A stretch of DNA of 37,296 nucleotides, taken from the IMG/VR virus record IMGVR_UViG_2711768063_000005, positions 1 to 37,296 of that record. One strand, given 5' to 3'. The notes below the pieces were generated by a model. It was not told where the DNA came from. It saw nothing but the letters and a program-made list of their open reading frames with translations, and did no database searches. Positions 3,904-7,791 of this stretch are shown here, piece by piece; within the stretch, counting starts at the first letter, position 1, and each line of letters opens with the position of its first letter. The position numbers and the translations under genes were made by a program. Origin of the DNA: a virus. Its lineage: Duplodnaviria; Heunggongvirae; Uroviricota; Caudoviricetes.

Positions 3904-4440
3904 TCAGGATTGCTTATGTATCTTATGCAGCTCTTTAAAACGTTCCATAAACATCCCGTAGGCATGGCCCGGAGCCAGTGGAATAACTTTGAATATCTCT
4001 GTTGCCGGGATACCTTCCAGTACTGGCCAGAAAGAGCCATCATCAAGCCCGAGATCGCGGCGTTCGGTTGCCAACATGATGAGATCGGCATATTTCACAG
4101 GTGTACTCATAACCGGGGGTAACCCGTATTTCTCACGGATTACGGCGTCTATTTTTTCTTCCATCCGTTTATAGTCGGGAAGAAGGCGTTTCAGTGGTGC
4201 GGGGATGTCCTGACAATATGCTTCTGTTGCATCATGCATTAACGCTTCAAAAGCAAATTCCTGCGGTACCAGCTGGCTGCAAAGCACCGCATGTTGGGCG
4301 ACGCTGTAGAAGTGTGAAAGATGTCCTGCAAAGCGACAGATATTTGAAAGGGAAACCGCGATATCGTTAATAACGATGTCGTCTTTATTTATCTTGTCAT
4401 AATAAAAATGCTTCCCGGAAAAAGTTTTAATAAATGACAT
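3904..4440 (-). CDS. HD-domain phosphohydrolase (YfdR-like prophage protein, 178 aa)
   Basis: HD-type metal-binding residues (SVAQHAV...LMHDATEAY); start at the internal ATG preceded by GGAG 6 nt upstream (track ORF starts at an upstream GTG with no RBS). Length and gene order match the CPS-53 yfdP-yfdQ-yfdR block as I recall it. Confidence 0.7.
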   Translation of the reverse strand: MSFIKTFSGKHFYYDKINKDDIVINDIAVSLSNICRFAGHLSHFYSVAQHAVLCSQLVPQEFAFEALMHDATEAYCQDIPAPLKRLLPDYKRMEEKIDAVIREKYGLPPVMSTPVKYADLIMLATERRDLGLDDGSFWPVLEGIPATEIFKVIPLAPGHAYGMFMERFKELHKIHKQS

Positions 4441-4533
4441 TTTGTTCTCCACGTATATGCGCTGCACCGCGCTGAATTTTGGTTAAAGAAAACCCTCGCC
4501 ATCAGGTGATTATTGAGTCAATTATGTTTCCAT

Positions 4534-4555
4534 AAATGCCCCCGCAGGGGCATTT
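4534..4555 (-). terminator. Intergenic perfect hairpin (AAATGCCCC-cgca-GGGGCATTT) between the YfdQ-like and YfdR-like genes; possible attenuator or processing site
   Basis: 9-bp perfect inverted repeat read directly; no strong T-run, so terminator function is uncertain. Confidence 0.3.
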
Positions 4556-4567
4556 GCAGTAATGAAA

Positions 4568-5392
4568 TCAGGCGTTGAAAGTACCAATAAAGGTTTTTAC
4601 TTTGCTGTCTTTGAATTTTTCAACTAGCAGATCACGAAATTCGTTAGCCATTTCTTCCTGTACTGCTTCCAGCTGAATAATGCGCAGAACCAGTACAGGG
4701 CGATCACCAGTGATAATGCTGAGTCGTAATTTAAACGGACGTTCTTTCAGGCCTTCAAACGGAACGCATTTAAATTCAAATGCCACTGGCATAATGTCTT
4801 TGGTCCTCGCTTCGACAGACTCCATCAGGGAGCGTTTGCCGCTGAAGTCATTGTCTTCAAAATCAGCAGTCTGGTTCGCTTCAATTGTGATTTTACGGAT
4901 CGCTGCAGCCGCTTTGGTTGCCTGAATGGCGTCACCATTAGCATCAAAGCCCACAAGGTAGTCTGCCCAGTCTTCAATCCATTCTGCCAGTGACTTCTGG
5001 GAGTTACGTTCGCCGTTAACAGACAACAGAGCAGAGAACGGGGCTGTCTTTTTCAGTTTGAGAGTGGTGGTGTTATCTGCGTGACCTGGTTCATCAATAG
5101 TACCCAGGTTAAGTACACTGACGGCACGCATATTATCAGCATCGATAAAGCAGCGGGTGCCTTCATCTGCAAGATCTTTAGAATAACGGGTAAAGTCATC
5201 GATGTTGGCAGTGGAAAGCGCACCACGGAAACGGAAGCGATTTAAATTAAATTTTTCCAGATCATGAATGCGGAAATTCTCAGGCAATGCTACAGCATCG
5301 GCACCAATCTTATTGATAATTTCATTAACACCCTGAGCAGAAATAAGGGCATGGATTTGATTAATTGCGGTTGCGTCTAAGTTCTGAGACAT
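4568..5392 (-). CDS. DUF2303-type prophage protein (YfdQ-like, 274 aa)
   Basis: Long ORF with good start context; size and position match YfdQ of the CPS-53-type early region; family assignment from memory. Confidence 0.65.
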
Positions 5393-5457: not shown

Positions 5458-5820
5458 TTAACGACCTGCTGCTCGGAGTTTTCCGTCAGGCTCACCGGCA
5501 AGAGTCAGTAATTGTCCCTGGTCTTCCTGCAGAATAGTCAGGCGACCACCGCGATTGACATACATCGGCGTTTCTGTGGTGTCTTCTTCGGAAATTTTCC
5601 CGCGGTTAGTCGGGCGAACATATGAGAGTTTGTGTTTGATTTTCACACGGTTCTCATCAAATGGTTCGATTTCCAGGTTGAGTGAGACCTTACCTTTGGT
5701 TTTCGTGTTCATCACACCGGAAGCGACTTCACTGAGAACTGCGCCGATTTTGGTTTCAAATACGCCGCCGTCCAGCTCCCCGATAAATGCCTGCACATCA
5801 GTACTGCGTTCGCTAGCCAT
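5458..5820 (-). CDS. Small prophage protein (YfdP-like, 120 aa)
   Basis: Start at the internal ATG (MASERSTD...) preceded by GAGGAG at 7-nt spacing; the 226-aa track ORF extends upstream through GC-rich non-protein-like sequence. Confidence 0.6.
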   Translation of the reverse strand: MASERSTDVQAFIGELDGGVFETKIGAVLSEVASGVMNTKTKGKVSLNLEIEPFDENRVKIKHKLSYVRPTNRGKISEEDTTETPMYVNRGGRLTILQEDQGQLLTLAGEPDGKLRAAGR

Positions 5821-6256
5821 TTTGCTGCTCCTCATCATATCGACCCTGCAAGGCCGATTAGTTTCTCCACAAAACAGAGAAGAACACCTGCGGTGGCAGC
5901 CGCCCGGATGGATTGAGTTATGAGCCCGTCGTCCGGTGATGTTCTTCTCTGTTTTGTAAAAAGGACGGTACCAGCCGGAAGCAAGGGTACAAGCTGGTAC
6001 CGCCAGGACTACACACAGCATAAAGTTGTGGTGCCGGGTGCCTCCCGGTGCCTGGCGAAGGTTGCACACCAGGCGGGTGGGTATCCACAGAAGGTCGACT
6101 GTCAGCCTCAACCTTAACCCGCGTGCGCTGAGCCGCATTCACCACAACGCTAAGGATTCTCTCTGGTTGAAAATACTTAGCTGTTATGTGCCTGCTTTTA
6201 GCCACATCAGGCGAGGTGGTATCCTTTTAAGCCCGTATACATAAAAGGAAAATCAA
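5821..6256. other. GC-rich structured noncoding region; candidate ncRNA or regulatory element
   Basis: About 430 bp without a credible ORF on either strand (track ORFs here are Pro/Arg/Gly/Cys-rich); contains an 18-bp perfect inverted repeat and a 9-bp stem hairpin. Confidence 0.3.
5869..5957. repeat. 18-bp perfect inverted repeat (ACAAAACAGAGAAGAACA ... TGTTCTTCTCTGTTTTGT) enclosing a 53-nt GC-rich loop
   Basis: Arms at 5869-5886 and 5940-5957 are exact reverse complements; a second hairpin GGTACCAGC-N17-GCTGGTACC follows at 5967-6001. Confidence 0.8.
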
Positions 6257-6502
6257 ATGACTTTTGATGAAAAAGAACTTGATAATGCAATTAATAAAAT
6301 CATCGTAACGTCGCTCTTTTCCTGTCTCAGCGACACTCAGCAAAAACAGTTCTACGAATCGGCTTTCAACATGATCGAGCGTTGTTGTTTCTGCGATGCC
6401 GACGAGTTACCTGAAAAAATCAGGAAACAGTTGGCTGATGCTCTTCGAGTGCGACTTTCTGACCAATTTTCTGAAATGTGCTCTCCGAATTTGGACAAAT
6501 AG
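6257..6502 (+). CDS. Hypothetical small protein (81 aa)
   Basis: ATG preceded by AAGGAA at 7-nt spacing; protein-like composition; antisense to the leftward early operon and overlaps the 3' end of the convergent ORF 6420-6695 by 83 nt. Confidence 0.45.
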   Translation: MTFDEKELDNAINKIIVTSLFSCLSDTQQKQFYESAFNMIERCCFCDADELPEKIRKQLADALRVRLSDQFSEMCSPNLDK

Positions 6503-6695
6503 AAAAAGGCCATTTCCATTCAGGGTCTGATGGAAATACTTCAGCCTGTTCCAAAGCACGGCGTAAAGAGAACACAACTCCAGCCATAATCTGATGTTTC
6601 CCATTGGTCCAGCTATCGCCGCTCTGATCTACAGGGGCGGCTATGTCGTATGACCAAACGACTTCACAGTTATTGTTTAAAATCTGGACTTTCAT
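6420..6695 (-). CDS. Hypothetical protein (91 aa), first ORF downstream of the OL-like operators
   Basis: Start at the internal ATG (MKVQILNNN...) preceded by AGGTG at 6-nt spacing; the track ORF start at 6737 lacks an RBS. Confidence 0.45.
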   Translation of the reverse strand: MKVQILNNNCEVVWSYDIAAPVDQSGDSWTNGKHQIMAGVVFSLRRALEQAEVFPSDPEWKWPFSICPNSESTFQKIGQKVALEEHQPTVS

Positions 6696-6909: not shown

Positions 6910-6947
6910 TTGCGGGATATGCAAGTGGTATTTTGCGAGATATGCAA
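6910..6947. promoter_or_regulatory. OL-like operator pair (TTGCGGGATATGCAA at 6910-6924, TTGCGAGATATGCAA at 6933-6947); probable PL region
   Basis: Two 15-bp sites with TTGC/GCAA palindromic ends 8 bp apart, matching the site between cI and cro at 7715-7729. Confidence 0.55.
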
Positions 6948-6957
6948 AATTATGGGT

Positions 6958-6981
6958 GATAAAAAGCCACCTTTCGGTGGC
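6958..6981 (-). terminator. Rho-independent terminator downstream of cI (minus strand)
   Basis: Stem GCCACC-tttc-GGTGGC followed on the minus strand by TTTTTATC, about 20 nt past the cI stop. Confidence 0.5.
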
Positions 6982-7001
6982 CGATGGATGGGATATTGAG
7001 G

Positions 7002-7694
7002 TTAATTATGTCTCTTAAGGGTTTGCGACTGACTGATTAAGACCTTTCCAAAGACCATGAATCGGTGTTCGTTTTCGCTAGTAATTCCCCATTCACGGTA
7101 AATCTGGTTATCAGAAATCACCAGCAGTTTGTCAGGAATCATTTGAAGTCTTTTAACGTATATTTTGTCATCAAAACCAAAGACATATATACCATCACCA
7201 TCAAACTGATTGATGCTGACATCGACGAAGATGAGATCTCCTGGCTCAATGGTTGGACACATACTGTCCCCACGAACGTTGATAACTTTGATGTGATTGG
7301 CTGGTCGTCCGCCGAACATTGATACAGCATTATCAGTTCTGTATTCGATGGCATGAATCACATCAATGACATCACCGCCCTGGATAAGGCCATTTCCCGC
7401 ACTGGCACTGATATCCAGCATTTCAATACGGAACACATCCTTCACCTGCGCAACATCCTCATTATTACTGTTTTTATATACAGTATTACTTTTGAGGGCA
7501 GAGGTAAAGAGATCAGCAATATCAACACCTAAGCTCTTGGCAATATTACTCAGTGTTTGTTCGGTAAATTGTTTCTGCTTACCCGTTTCTAAGCGCGAGA
7601 TGTTCGCCGCATCTACTCCTATTGCTTCAGCGAGATCGGCGATTTTCATGTTCTTCGCTTGGCGAAGTTGTCTGACTCGGTTTCCTATGTTCAT
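7002..7694 (-). CDS. cI: CI-type prophage repressor (N-terminal HTH_XRE, C-terminal S24 LexA-like peptidase domain)
   Basis: N-terminus NRVRQLRQAKNMKIADLAEAIGVDAANISRLETGK is a classic HTH; C-terminus contains the autocleavage-type fold with GDSMCPTIEPGDLIFVD and KR in ...IYVKRLQ. Divergent from a cro-like gene. No SD upstream of the ATG (leaderless-like, as for lambda PRM). Confidence 0.9.
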   Translation of the reverse strand: MNIGNRVRQLRQAKNMKIADLAEAIGVDAANISRLETGKQKQFTEQTLSNIAKSLGVDIADLFTSALKSNTVYKNSNNEDVAQVKDVFRIEMLDISASAGNGLIQGGDVIDVIHAIEYRTDNAVSMFGGRPANHIKVINVRGDSMCPTIEPGDLIFVDVSINQFDGDGIYVFGFDDKIYVKRLQMIPDKLLVISDNQIYREWGITSENEHRFMVFGKVLISQSQTLKRHN

Positions 7695-7791
7695 GCGTTT
7701 ATTACATTTCTTTATTGCGTGATAAGCAAATCAACTTGCGCAAAATACTTGCGTGAAATAACATGCATAACGCGCAATATTTGGAGGATAT
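7695..7791. promoter_or_regulatory. OR-like divergent promoter/operator region between cI and cro
   Basis: Contains TTGCGTGATAAGCAA (7715-7729), the 8-bp palindrome TTGCGCAA (7736-7743) and TTGCGTG...CGCGCAA (7749-7777). Confidence 0.6.

Follow-up and report, generated by a model that had tools for sequence, protein, structure and literature searches.

sRNA-17 of Escherichia coli K1 RS218 is a 193-nt RNA that was mapped by 5′/3′ RACE and northern blot (Front Microbiol 2020, PMC7719688). The primers published for its full length correspond to CGTTGTGGTGAATGCGCAGGCTGATG... and to the reverse complement of ...GGCTGGTACCGCTCTTTT; the authors reported that it has no relative in Rfam and suggested an ArcA-regulated promoter, and when a cat cassette took the place of sRNA-17, yfdP rose ~95-fold and yfdR rose as well (PMC7719688). 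STnc100 (RF02076) is also named EcOnc27 or sRNA103 and is related to PasD, and it is for the canonical STnc100 copies only that a discrete, Hfq-associated transcript has been reported. DicF (RF00039), from prophage Qin, occurs in a 190-nt form with an RNase III-made 5′ end and in a 53-nt form made by RNase E, both derived from an operon transcript. The put RNAs of phage HK022, putL and putR, are two copies of a ~70-nt RNA with two stems, and their action on RNA polymerase is in cis.

The RNase III sites of the lambda PL transcript (N leader; sib/tI retroregulation) and the T7 early sites are long imperfect hairpins, and cutting at them changes the fate of neighbouring messages. E. coli RNase III also cuts near-perfect duplexes of 25 bp or more.

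Here, we analyse an RNA element in a stretch of 37,296 nt from a virus of the Caudoviricetes (IMG/VR record IMGVR_UViG_2711768063_000005, positions 1 to 37,296), referred to below as the window. A GC-rich non-coding region with an 18-bp perfect inverted repeat had been predicted at 5821-6256 and proposed as a structured RNA. We consider it rather probable that the leftward early (PL-type) operon has in this region its structured, non-coding leader, which at the same time is a small-RNA gene. The kind of element is largely known already and the novelty is modest.

Results

The features of the locus, in the order of leftward transcription, are the following.

7002-7694, minus strand: cI-like repressor gene
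6965-6982, minus strand: intrinsic terminator after the cI-like repressor gene, GGCCACCGAAAGGTGGCT then TTTTTAT
6933-6947 and 6910-6924: operator-like 15-bp palindromes TTGCGAGATATGCAA and TTGCGGGATATGCAA, just left of the cI-like repressor gene
6191-6226, minus strand: conserved block GGAUACCACCUCGCCUGAUGUGGCUAAAAGCAGG with a GCCUG/CAGGC hairpin
6190-6143, minus strand: P0, irregular hairpin of ~20 bp in the predicted fold, CACAUAACAGCUAAG...CUUAGCGUUGUG
6149-5958, minus strand: predicted mature sRNA of ~192 nt (core, linker and terminator), the type-A-core counterpart of sRNA-17
6148-6025, minus strand: multibranch core, from the Rfam STnc100 match, fold and covariation
6148-6140 with 6033-6025: P1, the closing helix of the core, GUUGUGGUG paired with CACCACAAC
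Core interior after P1: unpaired AAU, P2 (GCGGC UCAGC GC-A-CGC), P3 and P4
6048-6034, minus strand: P5, CCGGG AGGCA CCCGG
6024-6005, minus strand: single-stranded linker UUUAUGCUGUGUGUAGUCCU, unpaired in the fold
6004-5958, minus strand: intrinsic terminator, 13-bp stem GGCGGUACCAGCU/GGCUGGUACCGUC, then C and UUUUU (5962-5958)
5962-5864, minus strand: I1, 25 contiguous pairs, from fold and covariation
5821-5863, minus strand: remaining yfdP 5′ UTR, with AAAC UAAUCGG, a small hairpin CGGCCUUGCAGGGUCG (5856-5841) and the Shine-Dalgarno sequence GAGGAG (5833-5828)
5458-5820, minus strand: yfdP, the first protein gene downstream, followed by yfdQ, yfdR, xis and int

The position of the element is constant, with the cI/OL region on one side and the first leftward gene on the other, and in ST64B and one Stx2a phage nothing else is annotated in the respective gaps of 815 and 778 nt. 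A palindrome search of the window gave three matches, namely the two listed and a third at 7715-7729 in the cI-cro intergenic region; the palindromes at 6910-6947 are presumed to mark OL/PL, the start of leftward early transcription. The assignment of PL is made from these operator-like repeats, and a possible −35/−10 pair is present there on the minus strand (TTGCAT-17 nt-TATCTT). A sigma-70 consensus scan detected no promoter at OL/PL and none near the RNA element, and reading by eye found no credible −10 upstream of 6149, so that a processed 5′ end at this position is more likely than a primary one. The SfV annotation places a terminator at the equivalent place after the repressor gene. At the other end, a mosaic boundary is drawn directly after GGAGAAACUAA, since the genes that follow I1 vary between phages. 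Prophage CPS-53 of K-12, which has yfdP, lacks the element, and its alignment is limited to ~40 nt before the start codon.

The high GC content noted for the region was borne out, with 0.52-0.58 over 5800-6200 compared to 0.38-0.47 in most flanking windows and a flanking maximum of 0.49 (5600-5799). The arms at 5869-5886 and 5940-5957 are exact reverse complements separated by 53 nt, as noted originally, and at 88% complementarity the repeat can be followed to 25 nt. Its improbability by chance was likewise upheld, as under a uniform model only 5.5e-5 such repeats (18 nt, perfect, loop of at most 100 nt) are expected in 37.3 kb. The second repeat, GGTACCAGC/GCTGGTACC, is likewise present at the place given for it, with perfect 10-nt arms at 5966-5975 and 5993-6002. 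Strand-specific folding of the whole region, which had been suggested as a check, favoured the minus strand (−182.4 kcal/mol, z −6.1) over the plus strand (−158.6 kcal/mol, z −3.4), and I1 alone likewise folds better on the minus strand. The element is read on this strand, with P0, the multibranch core, the linker and the intrinsic terminator as the four modules of an sRNA locus. This refines the structures first seen: the GGTACCAGC hairpin is the sRNA terminator, the body of the sRNA lies to its right at 6149-6005, and the 18-bp repeat falls outside the sRNA.

The right-hand limit of 6256 holds less well, as it depends on a putative orphan plus-strand ORF (6257-6502), and structured or conserved sequence reaches ~6226. 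The block at 6191-6226 is kept in SfV, e14, Salmonella phage 118970_sal3 and Cronobacter phage phiES15. This block may form the 5′ portion of the RNA element or, on the plus strand, may instead be an extended −10 promoter TGGTATCCT (6217-6225) for this ORF. The ORF has a good ribosome-binding site and is head-on to PL transcription, its relatives are all near-identical and found in E. coli only, and if real and expressed it complicates a single-transcript model.

In related phages P0 is a helix of 17-22 bp with many compensatory variants and z of −3 to −6.5, compared to z near 0 at chance loci. The 3′ strand of P0 is shared in part with the 5′ strand of P1, and from its sequence P0 is a candidate RNase III site at which the 5′ end of the sRNA could be made. 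For AGUGCUCUU, which precedes the core, a boxA-like element was considered and rejected, as this segment covaries as the 3′ strand of P0.

The core scaffold is found in at least 119 viral contigs, which have 51 distinct cores. For P1, P2 and P5 together, 99.2% of the cells were paired, as against 23-51% when the partners were slid, and 26 cells carried double changes compared to 9.8±2.7 in shuffles, none of 500 shuffles being as high. P3 and P4 also covary across relatives. P1, P2 and most of P5 are near-invariant in the window's own subtype, and the covariation support comes from more distant subtypes. A tRNA-like core was considered, for which ARAGORN gave no support, and a 14-mer scan of genome contigs returned chance matches except in two Kosakonia contigs (L011 and L099).

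Downstream of the core, the linker is a candidate seed and Hfq-binding region. The motif GCUGUGUG(U/A)AGUC recurs upstream of differing terminators in otherwise different variants. The segment GCUGUGUGUAGUC is the putative seed through which any trans targets would be paired; a search of the window for targets of GACTACACACAGC with at most 3 mismatches gave chance-level matches only. The 5′ junction of the linker, CAAC/UUUAUG, is a candidate RNase E site judged by the consensus RN/WUU and by the precedent of DicF, and cutting there could release a short form of ~66 nt.

The terminator contains the GGTACCAGC-N17-GCTGGTACC repeat and combines a GC-rich hairpin with an immediate U-run. It is conserved as structure rather than as sequence: a hairpin with a T-run follows the core at 30-107 nt in 68 of 75 distinct homologous downstream sequences, with ~15 unrelated stems. 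A simple terminator scan missed it because its loop is longer than 8 nt.

The original prediction saw no credible ORF in the region, and no coding signal was indeed found, although public annotation does put ORFs there. PGAP describes window positions ~5835-6145 on the minus strand as a "frameshifted hypothetical protein", and in K-12 prophage e14 the homologous stretch is annotated as the CDS ymfH. That the stretch encodes a small YmfH-like protein, as these annotations and the stop-free frames of ~100 codons in many copies would have it, is scarcely credible. Homologues differ from K-12 ymfH by indels of +1, +2 and −1 nt, and substitutions by codon position among 32 close homologues are flat in all four long frames (17/20/16, 14/15/17, 17/14/14 and 15/22/19), with neither a conserved frame nor a third-position bias. 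Neither Pfam nor NCBIfam gave a family match, and the conservation is accounted for by RNA covariation. The same lack of a coding signature conflicts with the earlier suggestion of a remnant of a deleted gene, which is therefore not supported.

I1 is a separate helix of the read-through transcript, outside the sRNA. It consists of five U·G/U-A pairs between the terminator U-tract and GGAGA, 18 perfect pairs (5957-5940 with 5886-5869), one U·G and one C-G pair, capped by a three-way junction, and folds at −48.2 kcal/mol (z −7.35). Since the terminator U-tract is incorporated, I1 can form only in read-through transcripts. Among 14 distinct sequences, 97.5% of the 20-bp helix is paired, with changes on both sides at 4 pairs and G·U or U·G pairs at three positions, and in each of the 14 the U-tract and the GGAGA that follows I1, both invariant, are paired with each other. 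The compensatory changes expected of a structured RNA in related phages are thus found for the long hairpin as well as for the core. The variants L194/L213 and that of Kosakonia (L011) carry helices of at least 25 bp and of unrelated sequence at the place of I1, and in every variant examined the length is at least 25 bp, whatever the sequence. With a near-continuous duplex of ~20 bp or more, I1 has the structure of an RNase III substrate and, judged from sequence, is probably an RNase III site in read-through PL transcripts. The published list of RNase III sites in K-12 has no e14 entry, and e14 was repressed under the conditions used.

Comparison with described RNAs

No Rfam family reached its gathering threshold in the window, and the proposed Rfam scan was informative when run permissively: STnc100 matched 6178-5955 on the minus strand over the full model (1-206) at 42.4 bits, short of the gathering score of 47, with E = 1.3e-7 in a 1.1-kb scan and 4.5e-6 for the whole window, and no other family had a meaningful score. 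Other type-A homologues score 40.6 (phiES15), 35.1 (ST64B) and 29.2 bits (e14) against the same model. The window has the STnc100-type architecture, in which P1 (GGUGAAU...CACC), the hairpin CCGGGAGGCACCCGG, a linker and an intrinsic terminator follow each other. Both RNAs are prophage-borne and have a multibranch fold closed by P1 (xUGGUGAAU...CACCAx), and their last hairpin before linker and terminator, CCGGGAGGCACCCGG, is identical. In contrast, P2 and the middle hairpins are unlike those of the window, the Rfam model contains neither P0 nor I1, and the canonical copies are late-region elements with Q, stx2 and the nanS-p esterase gene nearby, whereas the window copy is early-left. A second STnc100 match at 4397-4578 (22 bits, E 0.6) was dismissed as noise, and corresponds to a terminator-like hairpin after yfdQ.

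The homology to sRNA-17 was judged from the primer table of the RS218 study, the full-length primers of which place the start of sRNA-17 at the 5′ strand of P1 and its end in a terminator of the window type (PMC7719688). The 3′ RACE end lies within the terminator U-tract, and the predicted ~192-nt RNA (6149-5958) corresponds at both ends to the 193-nt sRNA-17. The two share the start CGUUGUGGUGAAUGCG, P1, a near-identical terminator, a similar length and a leftward location between the immunity region and yfdP of a lambdoid prophage; Stx2a_1447 and IMG/VR contigs have sequence of the sRNA-17 type in this same context. When aligned to the window, this type agrees with it at all of the 16 nt that directly follow the shared CG start and is near-identical in the terminator, whereas the core interior and linker are not confidently alignable. 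The window has a core of type A (GCUCAGCGCACGCGGG...CACCGGGAGGCACCCGG) and sRNA-17 one of type B (CAGGCUGAUGCGCG...GCCGGAGAUCAGCACCGG), their linkers and seeds are unlike, and neither P0 nor I1 is described in the RS218 paper (PMC7719688). Type-B sRNA-17 had no match in Rfam and the window scores below the gathering threshold, and the link between STnc100 and sRNA-17 therefore rests on the shared P1, P5 and terminator.

The DicF locus is similar in layout, being a leftward operon next to the immunity region with small ORFs, a long P0, a structured RNA, a linker with seed, a terminator and the next gene. The P0 strand in Qin, CCAUAACGCGAAAGCGCAU/GUGCGCUUCCGGUUGUGG, resembles the P0 of this family, and the homologous helix is predicted at the RNase III cut that gives the 190-nt DicF its 5′ end. 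The features of DicF-type biogenesis, an upstream long helix, an AU-rich single-stranded site and an intrinsic terminator, are present in the sequence of the window. The DicF model scored at chance level on the terminator (5963-6017, minus strand; 15.9 bits, E 1.8) and reached 28.5 bits (E 0.017) on the e14 homologue, in neither case attaining the gathering score of 48. Neither the seed of DicF nor the interior of its 190-nt precursor can be aligned with the window core; reading that interior as a type-A or type-B core was rejected, as its fold differs. A type-A core copy does lie between dicF and dicB, and in Qin this second copy follows the terminator in place of the I1 hairpin. What we would claim as shared with DicF from such sequence comparison is limited to P0, position and terminator.

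Discussion

The proposal of a structured RNA in a leftward PL-type transcript, or of an independent non-coding RNA, is supported by minus-strand folding, covariation, the conserved terminator and the mapped homologue sRNA-17. In the model that we favour, transcription would enter from the right, from the operator/promoter beyond the cI-like gene, and would pass a small ORF before reaching P0, the core, the linker and the terminator, which would halt most polymerases. A cut by RNase III in the P0 helix would set the 5′ end near 6149 and yield a stable RNA of ~192 nt, in which the P1-closed core may be a protective or recognition scaffold and the linker with the U-tail is likely to be the Hfq-binding and base-pairing module; trimming by RNase E at CAAC/UUUAUG may give the ~66-nt short form in a DicF-like manner. 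Polymerases that read through would make I1, a helix of at least 25 bp in which the U-tract is taken up. RNase III could then cut I1, separating the sRNA from the yfdP-yfdQ-yfdR-xis-int message and setting the 5′ end and stability of the latter. As in sib, the full duplex would exist only in read-through transcripts because it includes terminator sequence. As a candidate site, I1 has no sequence similarity to the lambda and T7 sites, and it lies upstream of xis/int and not downstream.

The conserved helix might serve in other ways. It is unlikely, but worth weighing, that I1 escapes RNase III and is a stable 5′-UTR structure controlling the downstream message directly; it could do so by protecting the 5′ end, by pausing polymerase or ribosomes, or by binding a phage or host protein at the apical junction. 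The conservation of the apical GACGGGCUCAUAACCCAAUCC between E. coli and Salmonella phages, beyond the needs of base pairing, and the fact that I1 remains with the RNA module regardless of the next gene would suit this role, but the L194/L213 variants replace the whole apical part while helix length and position are retained, and E. coli RNase III is known to cleave near-perfect duplexes of this length (25 bp or more). We regard it as highly improbable that I1 is a back-up terminator or attenuator in tandem, insulating yfdPQR-xis-int from leftward transcription. Tandem terminators are common in phage early operons and the window-type 3′ arm ends in UCUGUUUUGU while the 5′ arm starts with ACAAAA, resembling an A-tract/hairpin/U-tract; however, the U-run lies inside the helix with nothing U-rich after the full helix (GUGGAGAAAC), a U-run is absent altogether from the L194/L213 and Kosakonia variants, and a loop of at least 53 nt with a three-way junction is atypical of terminators. 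Moreover, transcription from the RS218 cassette, on its inferred orientation, reached yfdP across the hairpin.

We give almost no weight to the idea that the palindrome acts as DNA, as a recombination hotspot, cruciform or protein-binding site; a recombination or protein-binding site was also part of the original prediction. The repeat is perfect in this particular window and lies near mosaic junctions between phage modules, yet most homologues contain G·U or U·G pairs, which are possible only in minus-sense RNA and would be A·C mismatches in DNA or plus-sense RNA; furthermore, the helix runs via U·G pairs into the terminator U-tract, and other phages swap its sequence wholly while keeping its length. 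As for the core, a mainly cis-acting antitermination role in N-less phages, in which its position would correspond to that of lambda nutL or HK022 putL and polymerase would be let past the terminator behind it, appears quite improbable. Like put, it is a structured RNA just downstream of PL in a lambdoid phage without an N homologue and upstream of the first terminator; its scaffold is elaborate and highly conserved, and relatives also occur in late operons near Q. On the other hand, put and nut sites are expected as paired left and right copies, as in HK022, while the window has a single meaningful match, which ends in its own terminator, and none in the rightward operon, and relatives have been recovered as discrete, Hfq-associated, trans-acting sRNAs. 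A leader that doubles as an sRNA gene, followed by a probable RNase III site, is the reading that we prefer.

A wider unification is more tentative, and on balance we doubt it: sRNA-17, the "ymfH" of e14, STnc100/PasD/EcOnc27 and the DicF locus might be alleles of one modular lambdoid-prophage cassette, made up of P0, a P1-closed scaffold, an exchangeable seed, a terminator and often an I1 of at least 25 bp. The cassette would constitute the whole PL leader in N-less phages of the SfV/e14/ST64B type, with I1 as a sib-like RNase III switch that, if this holds, would couple release of the sRNA to the fate of the yfdPQR-xis-int message. Three separately named families of prophage sRNA (sRNA-17, STnc100/PasD and the DicF locus) are joined here by a shared architecture, suggesting that seeds are exchanged among these phages on a scaffold held in common, and I1 sits where leftward transcription passes toward the excision and integration genes. 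Should RNase III cut I1, prophage early genes would be under the control of RNA processing that depends on read-through, of which this would be a new case. The published rise of yfdP and yfdR on deletion of sRNA-17 fits read-through into the adjacent genes, and may be a cis effect and not trans regulation.

The labels "hypothetical protein", "frameshifted pseudogene" and ymfH should, on the present evidence, give way to that of a small-RNA locus. A match to the region is present in 3361 of 5426 complete E. coli genomes.

Genomic setting

The region lies in an SfV/e14-like prophage whose integration site adjoins icd, and the relevant genes all point leftward in the order cI-like repressor, small ORF, RNA region, yfdP, yfdQ, yfdR, xis and int. 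Over positions 5700-6400 the sequence matches E. coli strain 2c3 at 100% identity and Shigella phage SfV at 98%. The operon and the helices of its minus-strand RNA (P0, P1 to P5 of a multibranch core, and I1 beyond the terminator) are laid out as follows.

7002-7694, minus: cI-like repressor gene, with its own terminator at 6982-6965
6910-6947: two 15-bp operator-like palindromes, just beyond the repressor terminator
6420-6695, minus: small ORF between repressor and RNA region
6190-6143, minus: P0, an irregular helix of about 20 bp upstream of the core
GUUGUGGUG/CACCACAAC, minus: P1, which closes the core
After the P1 5′ strand, minus: three unpaired bases AAU, hairpin P2, one to three variable hairpins, then P5, the last hairpin of the core (5 bp, abutting the P1 3′ strand)
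5962-5958 with 5868-5864, minus: lower part of I1, the terminator U-tract paired with GGAGA in five U-A or U·G pairs
Remainder of I1, minus: 18 perfect pairs, then one U·G and one C-G, with a three-way junction on top

A third operator-like palindrome occupies the cI-cro intergenic region, and the palindromes would mark a PL/OL-type start of leftward early transcription from a putative promoter. The gaps between repressor and yfdP in Salmonella phage ST64B (815 nt) and in a Stx2a phage (778 nt) hold no annotated gene, and both carry the same RNA element as the window. Matches to 5955-6256 are found in 3361 of 5426 complete E. coli genomes, 1819 of them covering at least 80% of that stretch.

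On the plus strand, an ORF of 81 codons (6257-6502) comes with a strong ribosome-binding site, AAAGGAAAATCAAATG; TGGTATCCT at 6217-6225 may be its extended −10. It is convergent with PL transcription, overlaps the leftward ORF 6420-6695 by 83 nt, and has only near-identical E. coli copies as relatives. Other plus-strand ORFs follow the shared conserved block at this position in e14 (ymfI), Salmonella phage 118970_sal3 (gp050) and phiES15.

Coding potential

The region was originally said to hold no credible ORF. PGAP labels about 5835-6145 (minus) a 'frameshifted hypothetical protein', and the homologous stretch of K-12 prophage e14, 92% identical, carries the gene annotation ymfH. This gene (b1142; e14 locus L008, 5070-5381) overlies the homologous core, terminator and I1. 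No relative keeps its reading frame, and essentially all homologues show indels of +1, +2 and −1 nt against it. Among 32 close homologues single-nucleotide indels segregate, and substitutions in the four long frames are flat by codon position (17/20/16, 14/15/17, 17/14/14 and 15/22/19). No family in Pfam or NCBIfam matches. The non-conserved frame, flat substitutions and absent family contradict a protein-coding reading, and the original view therefore stands; ymfH is probably a spurious ORF over an RNA gene. The core of locus L198 has a 7-nt duplication (CACCCGG) in P5, another indel that is not a multiple of three in the supposed ORF.

Identity of the RNA

The minus strand folds more stably (−182.4 kcal/mol, z −6.1) than the plus strand (−158.6 kcal/mol, z −3.4). 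A permissive Rfam scan gave one meaningful match, to the full STnc100 model at 6178-5955 (minus; 42.4 bits, E 1.3e-7), below the gathering score of 47 bits. STnc100 (EcOnc27, sRNA103; related to PasD) is an established family of Hfq-associated prophage sRNAs, with canonical copies found in the late region, close to Q, stx2 and the esterase gene. The E. coli K1 RS218 RNA sRNA-17 is more closely related. This RNA of 193 nt is located in an mEp460-like prophage; its 5′ and 3′ ends were mapped by RACE, and a northern blot confirmed the RNA (PMC7719688). Its full-length primers, CGTTGTGGTGAATGCGCAGGCTGATGCGCGAAA and the reverse complement of GTACACTTGCTTCCGGCTGGTACCGCTCTTTT (PMC7719688), place its start exactly at the P1 5′ strand and its end in the U-tract of the GGTACCAG...CTGGTACC hairpin, which the window shares. 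By homology, the RNA predicted in the window spans 6149 to 5958, about 192 nt.

The core interior and the linker differ between sRNA-17 (type B) and the window (type A). Other type-A copies also match STnc100 below threshold (phiES15 40.6, ST64B 35.1 and e14 29.2 bits) and the type-B sequence shows no STnc100 match, so that type A forms a bridge between the STnc100 and sRNA-17 families. Because it falls below the gathering thresholds of both Rfam STnc100 and Rfam DicF, the element formally belongs to neither; it has the fold of STnc100, the same ends and setting as sRNA-17, and an operon logic like that of DicF. The best classification is as a variant of the sRNA-17/STnc100 kind with a type-A core. 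Fold, covariation and relatives support the structured RNA proposed originally. P0 and I1 as conserved module parts, the link to the DicF locus and the reading of K-12 ymfH as this prophage RNA appear not to have been described before.

Above-threshold IsrK and C4 antisense RNA matches occur in the rightward operons of ST64B (L004 5731-5919) and of an sRNA-17-type phage (L135 2965-3153), and none in the window.

Core, linker and P0

A pattern scan of viral contigs recovered the scaffold at 119 loci or more, with 51 different cores among them, and a second scan without the P1 constraint recovered further subtypes. Across 19 sequences 99.2% of the cells in P1, P2 and P5 are paired. Double changes number 26, shuffles give 9.8±2.7 and none of 500 shuffles reaches 26, and pairing drops to 23-51% when the partners are slid; covariation in P3 and P4 was found within type A. 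The linker 3′ of the core (6024-6005, minus) is single-stranded, and GCUGUGUG(U/A)AGUC recurs in it across many variants. An intrinsic terminator follows: of 75 distinct downstream sequences, 68 have a hairpin and T-run 30-107 nt past the core, with about 15 unrelated stems among them, and the others continue into tRNA genes or a tandem copy.

P0 measures 17-22 bp across the family, pairing CACA(A/U)AAC... with ...CGUUGUG under abundant compensatory variation, and the 3′ strand of P0 shares bases with the 5′ strand of P1. GUUGUG(GUG) (6143-6148) complements both the upstream CACAUAAC (6183-6190) and the downstream CACCACAAC (6025-6033), and P0 and full-length P1 are therefore mutually exclusive, which may represent maturation-coupled refolding.

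The P0 loops of L007 (Stx2a_1447), L005 (118970_sal3), L131 and L145 hold inserts of 60-80 nt with tRNA T-arm-like sequences, e.g. GUGGGUUCAACUCCCAC and GGUUCGACUCC. Tandem copies (IMG/VR loci L143, L154) and copies flanked by tRNA genes (L179, L240, L245) are without a terminator of their own, which suggests co-processing with tRNAs. The P2 and P5 loops of type-B cores (e.g. L135, L007), GGCUGAU and AGAUCAGCA, are complementary to each other, and GCUGA/UCAGC is kept in divergent variants, suggestive of a loop-loop contact; type A has no equivalent of this complementarity.

The I1 helix

As first noticed, ACAAAACAGAGAAGAACA (5869-5886) is the exact reverse complement of TGTTCTTCTCTGTTTTGT (5940-5957) across 53 nt, and GGTACCAGC/GCTGGTACC form a perfect 10-nt repeat at 5966-5975/5993-6002. 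The surrounding DNA is indeed GC-rich (0.52-0.58 over 5800-6200 against 0.38-0.47 in most flanking windows). At 88% complementarity the longer repeat can be followed over 25 nt, and chance was rightly discounted, with 5.5e-5 perfect 18-nt inverted repeats expected in a window-sized sequence (uniform model, loop ≤100 nt). On the minus-sense RNA it becomes I1, 25 contiguous pairs just outside the sRNA (−48.2 kcal/mol, z −7.35); the helix predicted for plus-sense RNA is shorter and less stable. Among 14 distinct sequences its 20-bp helix is 97.5% paired with four pairs changed on both sides, and wobble pairs (G·U or U·G) appear at three positions, at one of which the perfect A-U of the window is the minority state. 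Such pairs are mismatches in DNA or plus-sense RNA, and they contradict the suggestion of a protein-binding or recombination site in the DNA.

Loci L194/L213 and a Kosakonia prophage have helices of at least 25 bp and unrelated sequence at the same spot, flanked as in the window by the same U-tract and GUGGAGA(A/U)AC. I1 is kept with the RNA module whatever gene follows (yfdP, xisE in e14, others), with a mosaic junction immediately past GGAGAAACUAA, and is absent from some phages, e.g. phiES15. Known families account for most of the element, the I1 duplex being the exception. I1 could possibly be a plain 5′-UTR or protein-binding structure, as its apical sequence is common to E. coli and Salmonella copies, but that sequence is replaced in L194. 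A back-up terminator is disfavoured by the lack of a U-run after the full helix and of any U-run in some variants. A put/nut-like cis antiterminator would fit the position of the core, but the window has a single copy and the relatives act as discrete sRNAs.

Proposed processing

DicF is cut out of a repressor-controlled operon transcript of prophage Qin without an internal promoter: RNase III makes the 5′ end of the 190-nt form, the 53-nt form is an RNase E product, and the 3′ end is reported to be a termination product. A predicted long P0-like helix, CCAUAACGCGAAAGCGCAU.../...GUGCGCUUCCGGUUGUGG, resembling P0 of this family in sequence, lies exactly at the start of the 190-nt form. Directly past the DicF terminator a type-A core copy, GUGAUGUGGUGAAUGCGGCUGAGCGCACGCGG...CACCUGGAGGCACCAGGCACUGCAUCAC (L248 2451-2585), reaches the dicB ribosome-binding site; compared with the window, its P1 and P5 are altered in a compensatory way, and a published RNase III candidate site (1649470) lies within it.

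This locus serves as a worked precedent, and from it and its P0-like helix a homology-based model of four steps is proposed, cleavages included. PL-type transcription would traverse P0, core, linker and terminator; RNase III would cut P0, freeing the P1 5′ strand to pair and yielding the RNA of about 192 nt; RNase E might cut between CAAC and UUUAUG, leaving a form of about 66 nt with seed and terminator; and read-through RNA would form I1, a duplex of RNase III-substrate length, whose cleavage would part the sRNA from the yfdPQR-xis-int message. I1 can form only in read-through RNA because it includes the terminator U-tract. The sib structure of lambda likewise forms only in read-through RNA.

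When a cat cassette took the place of sRNA-17, yfdP rose about 95-fold and yfdR rose as well (PMC7719688). The replacement primers leave the terminator in place and, as we read them, cat points toward yfdP; on that reading the rise is cis read-through across terminator and I1 rather than trans regulation, which fits the processing model.

Further along the operon, the yfdQ-yfdR intergenic region (4397-4578, minus) holds a terminator-like hairpin, GCCCCUGCGGGGGC then AUUUAUGG, which is a weak second STnc100 match (22 bits, E 0.6). In some phages without yfdP and yfdQ, I1 is joined straight to this sequence.
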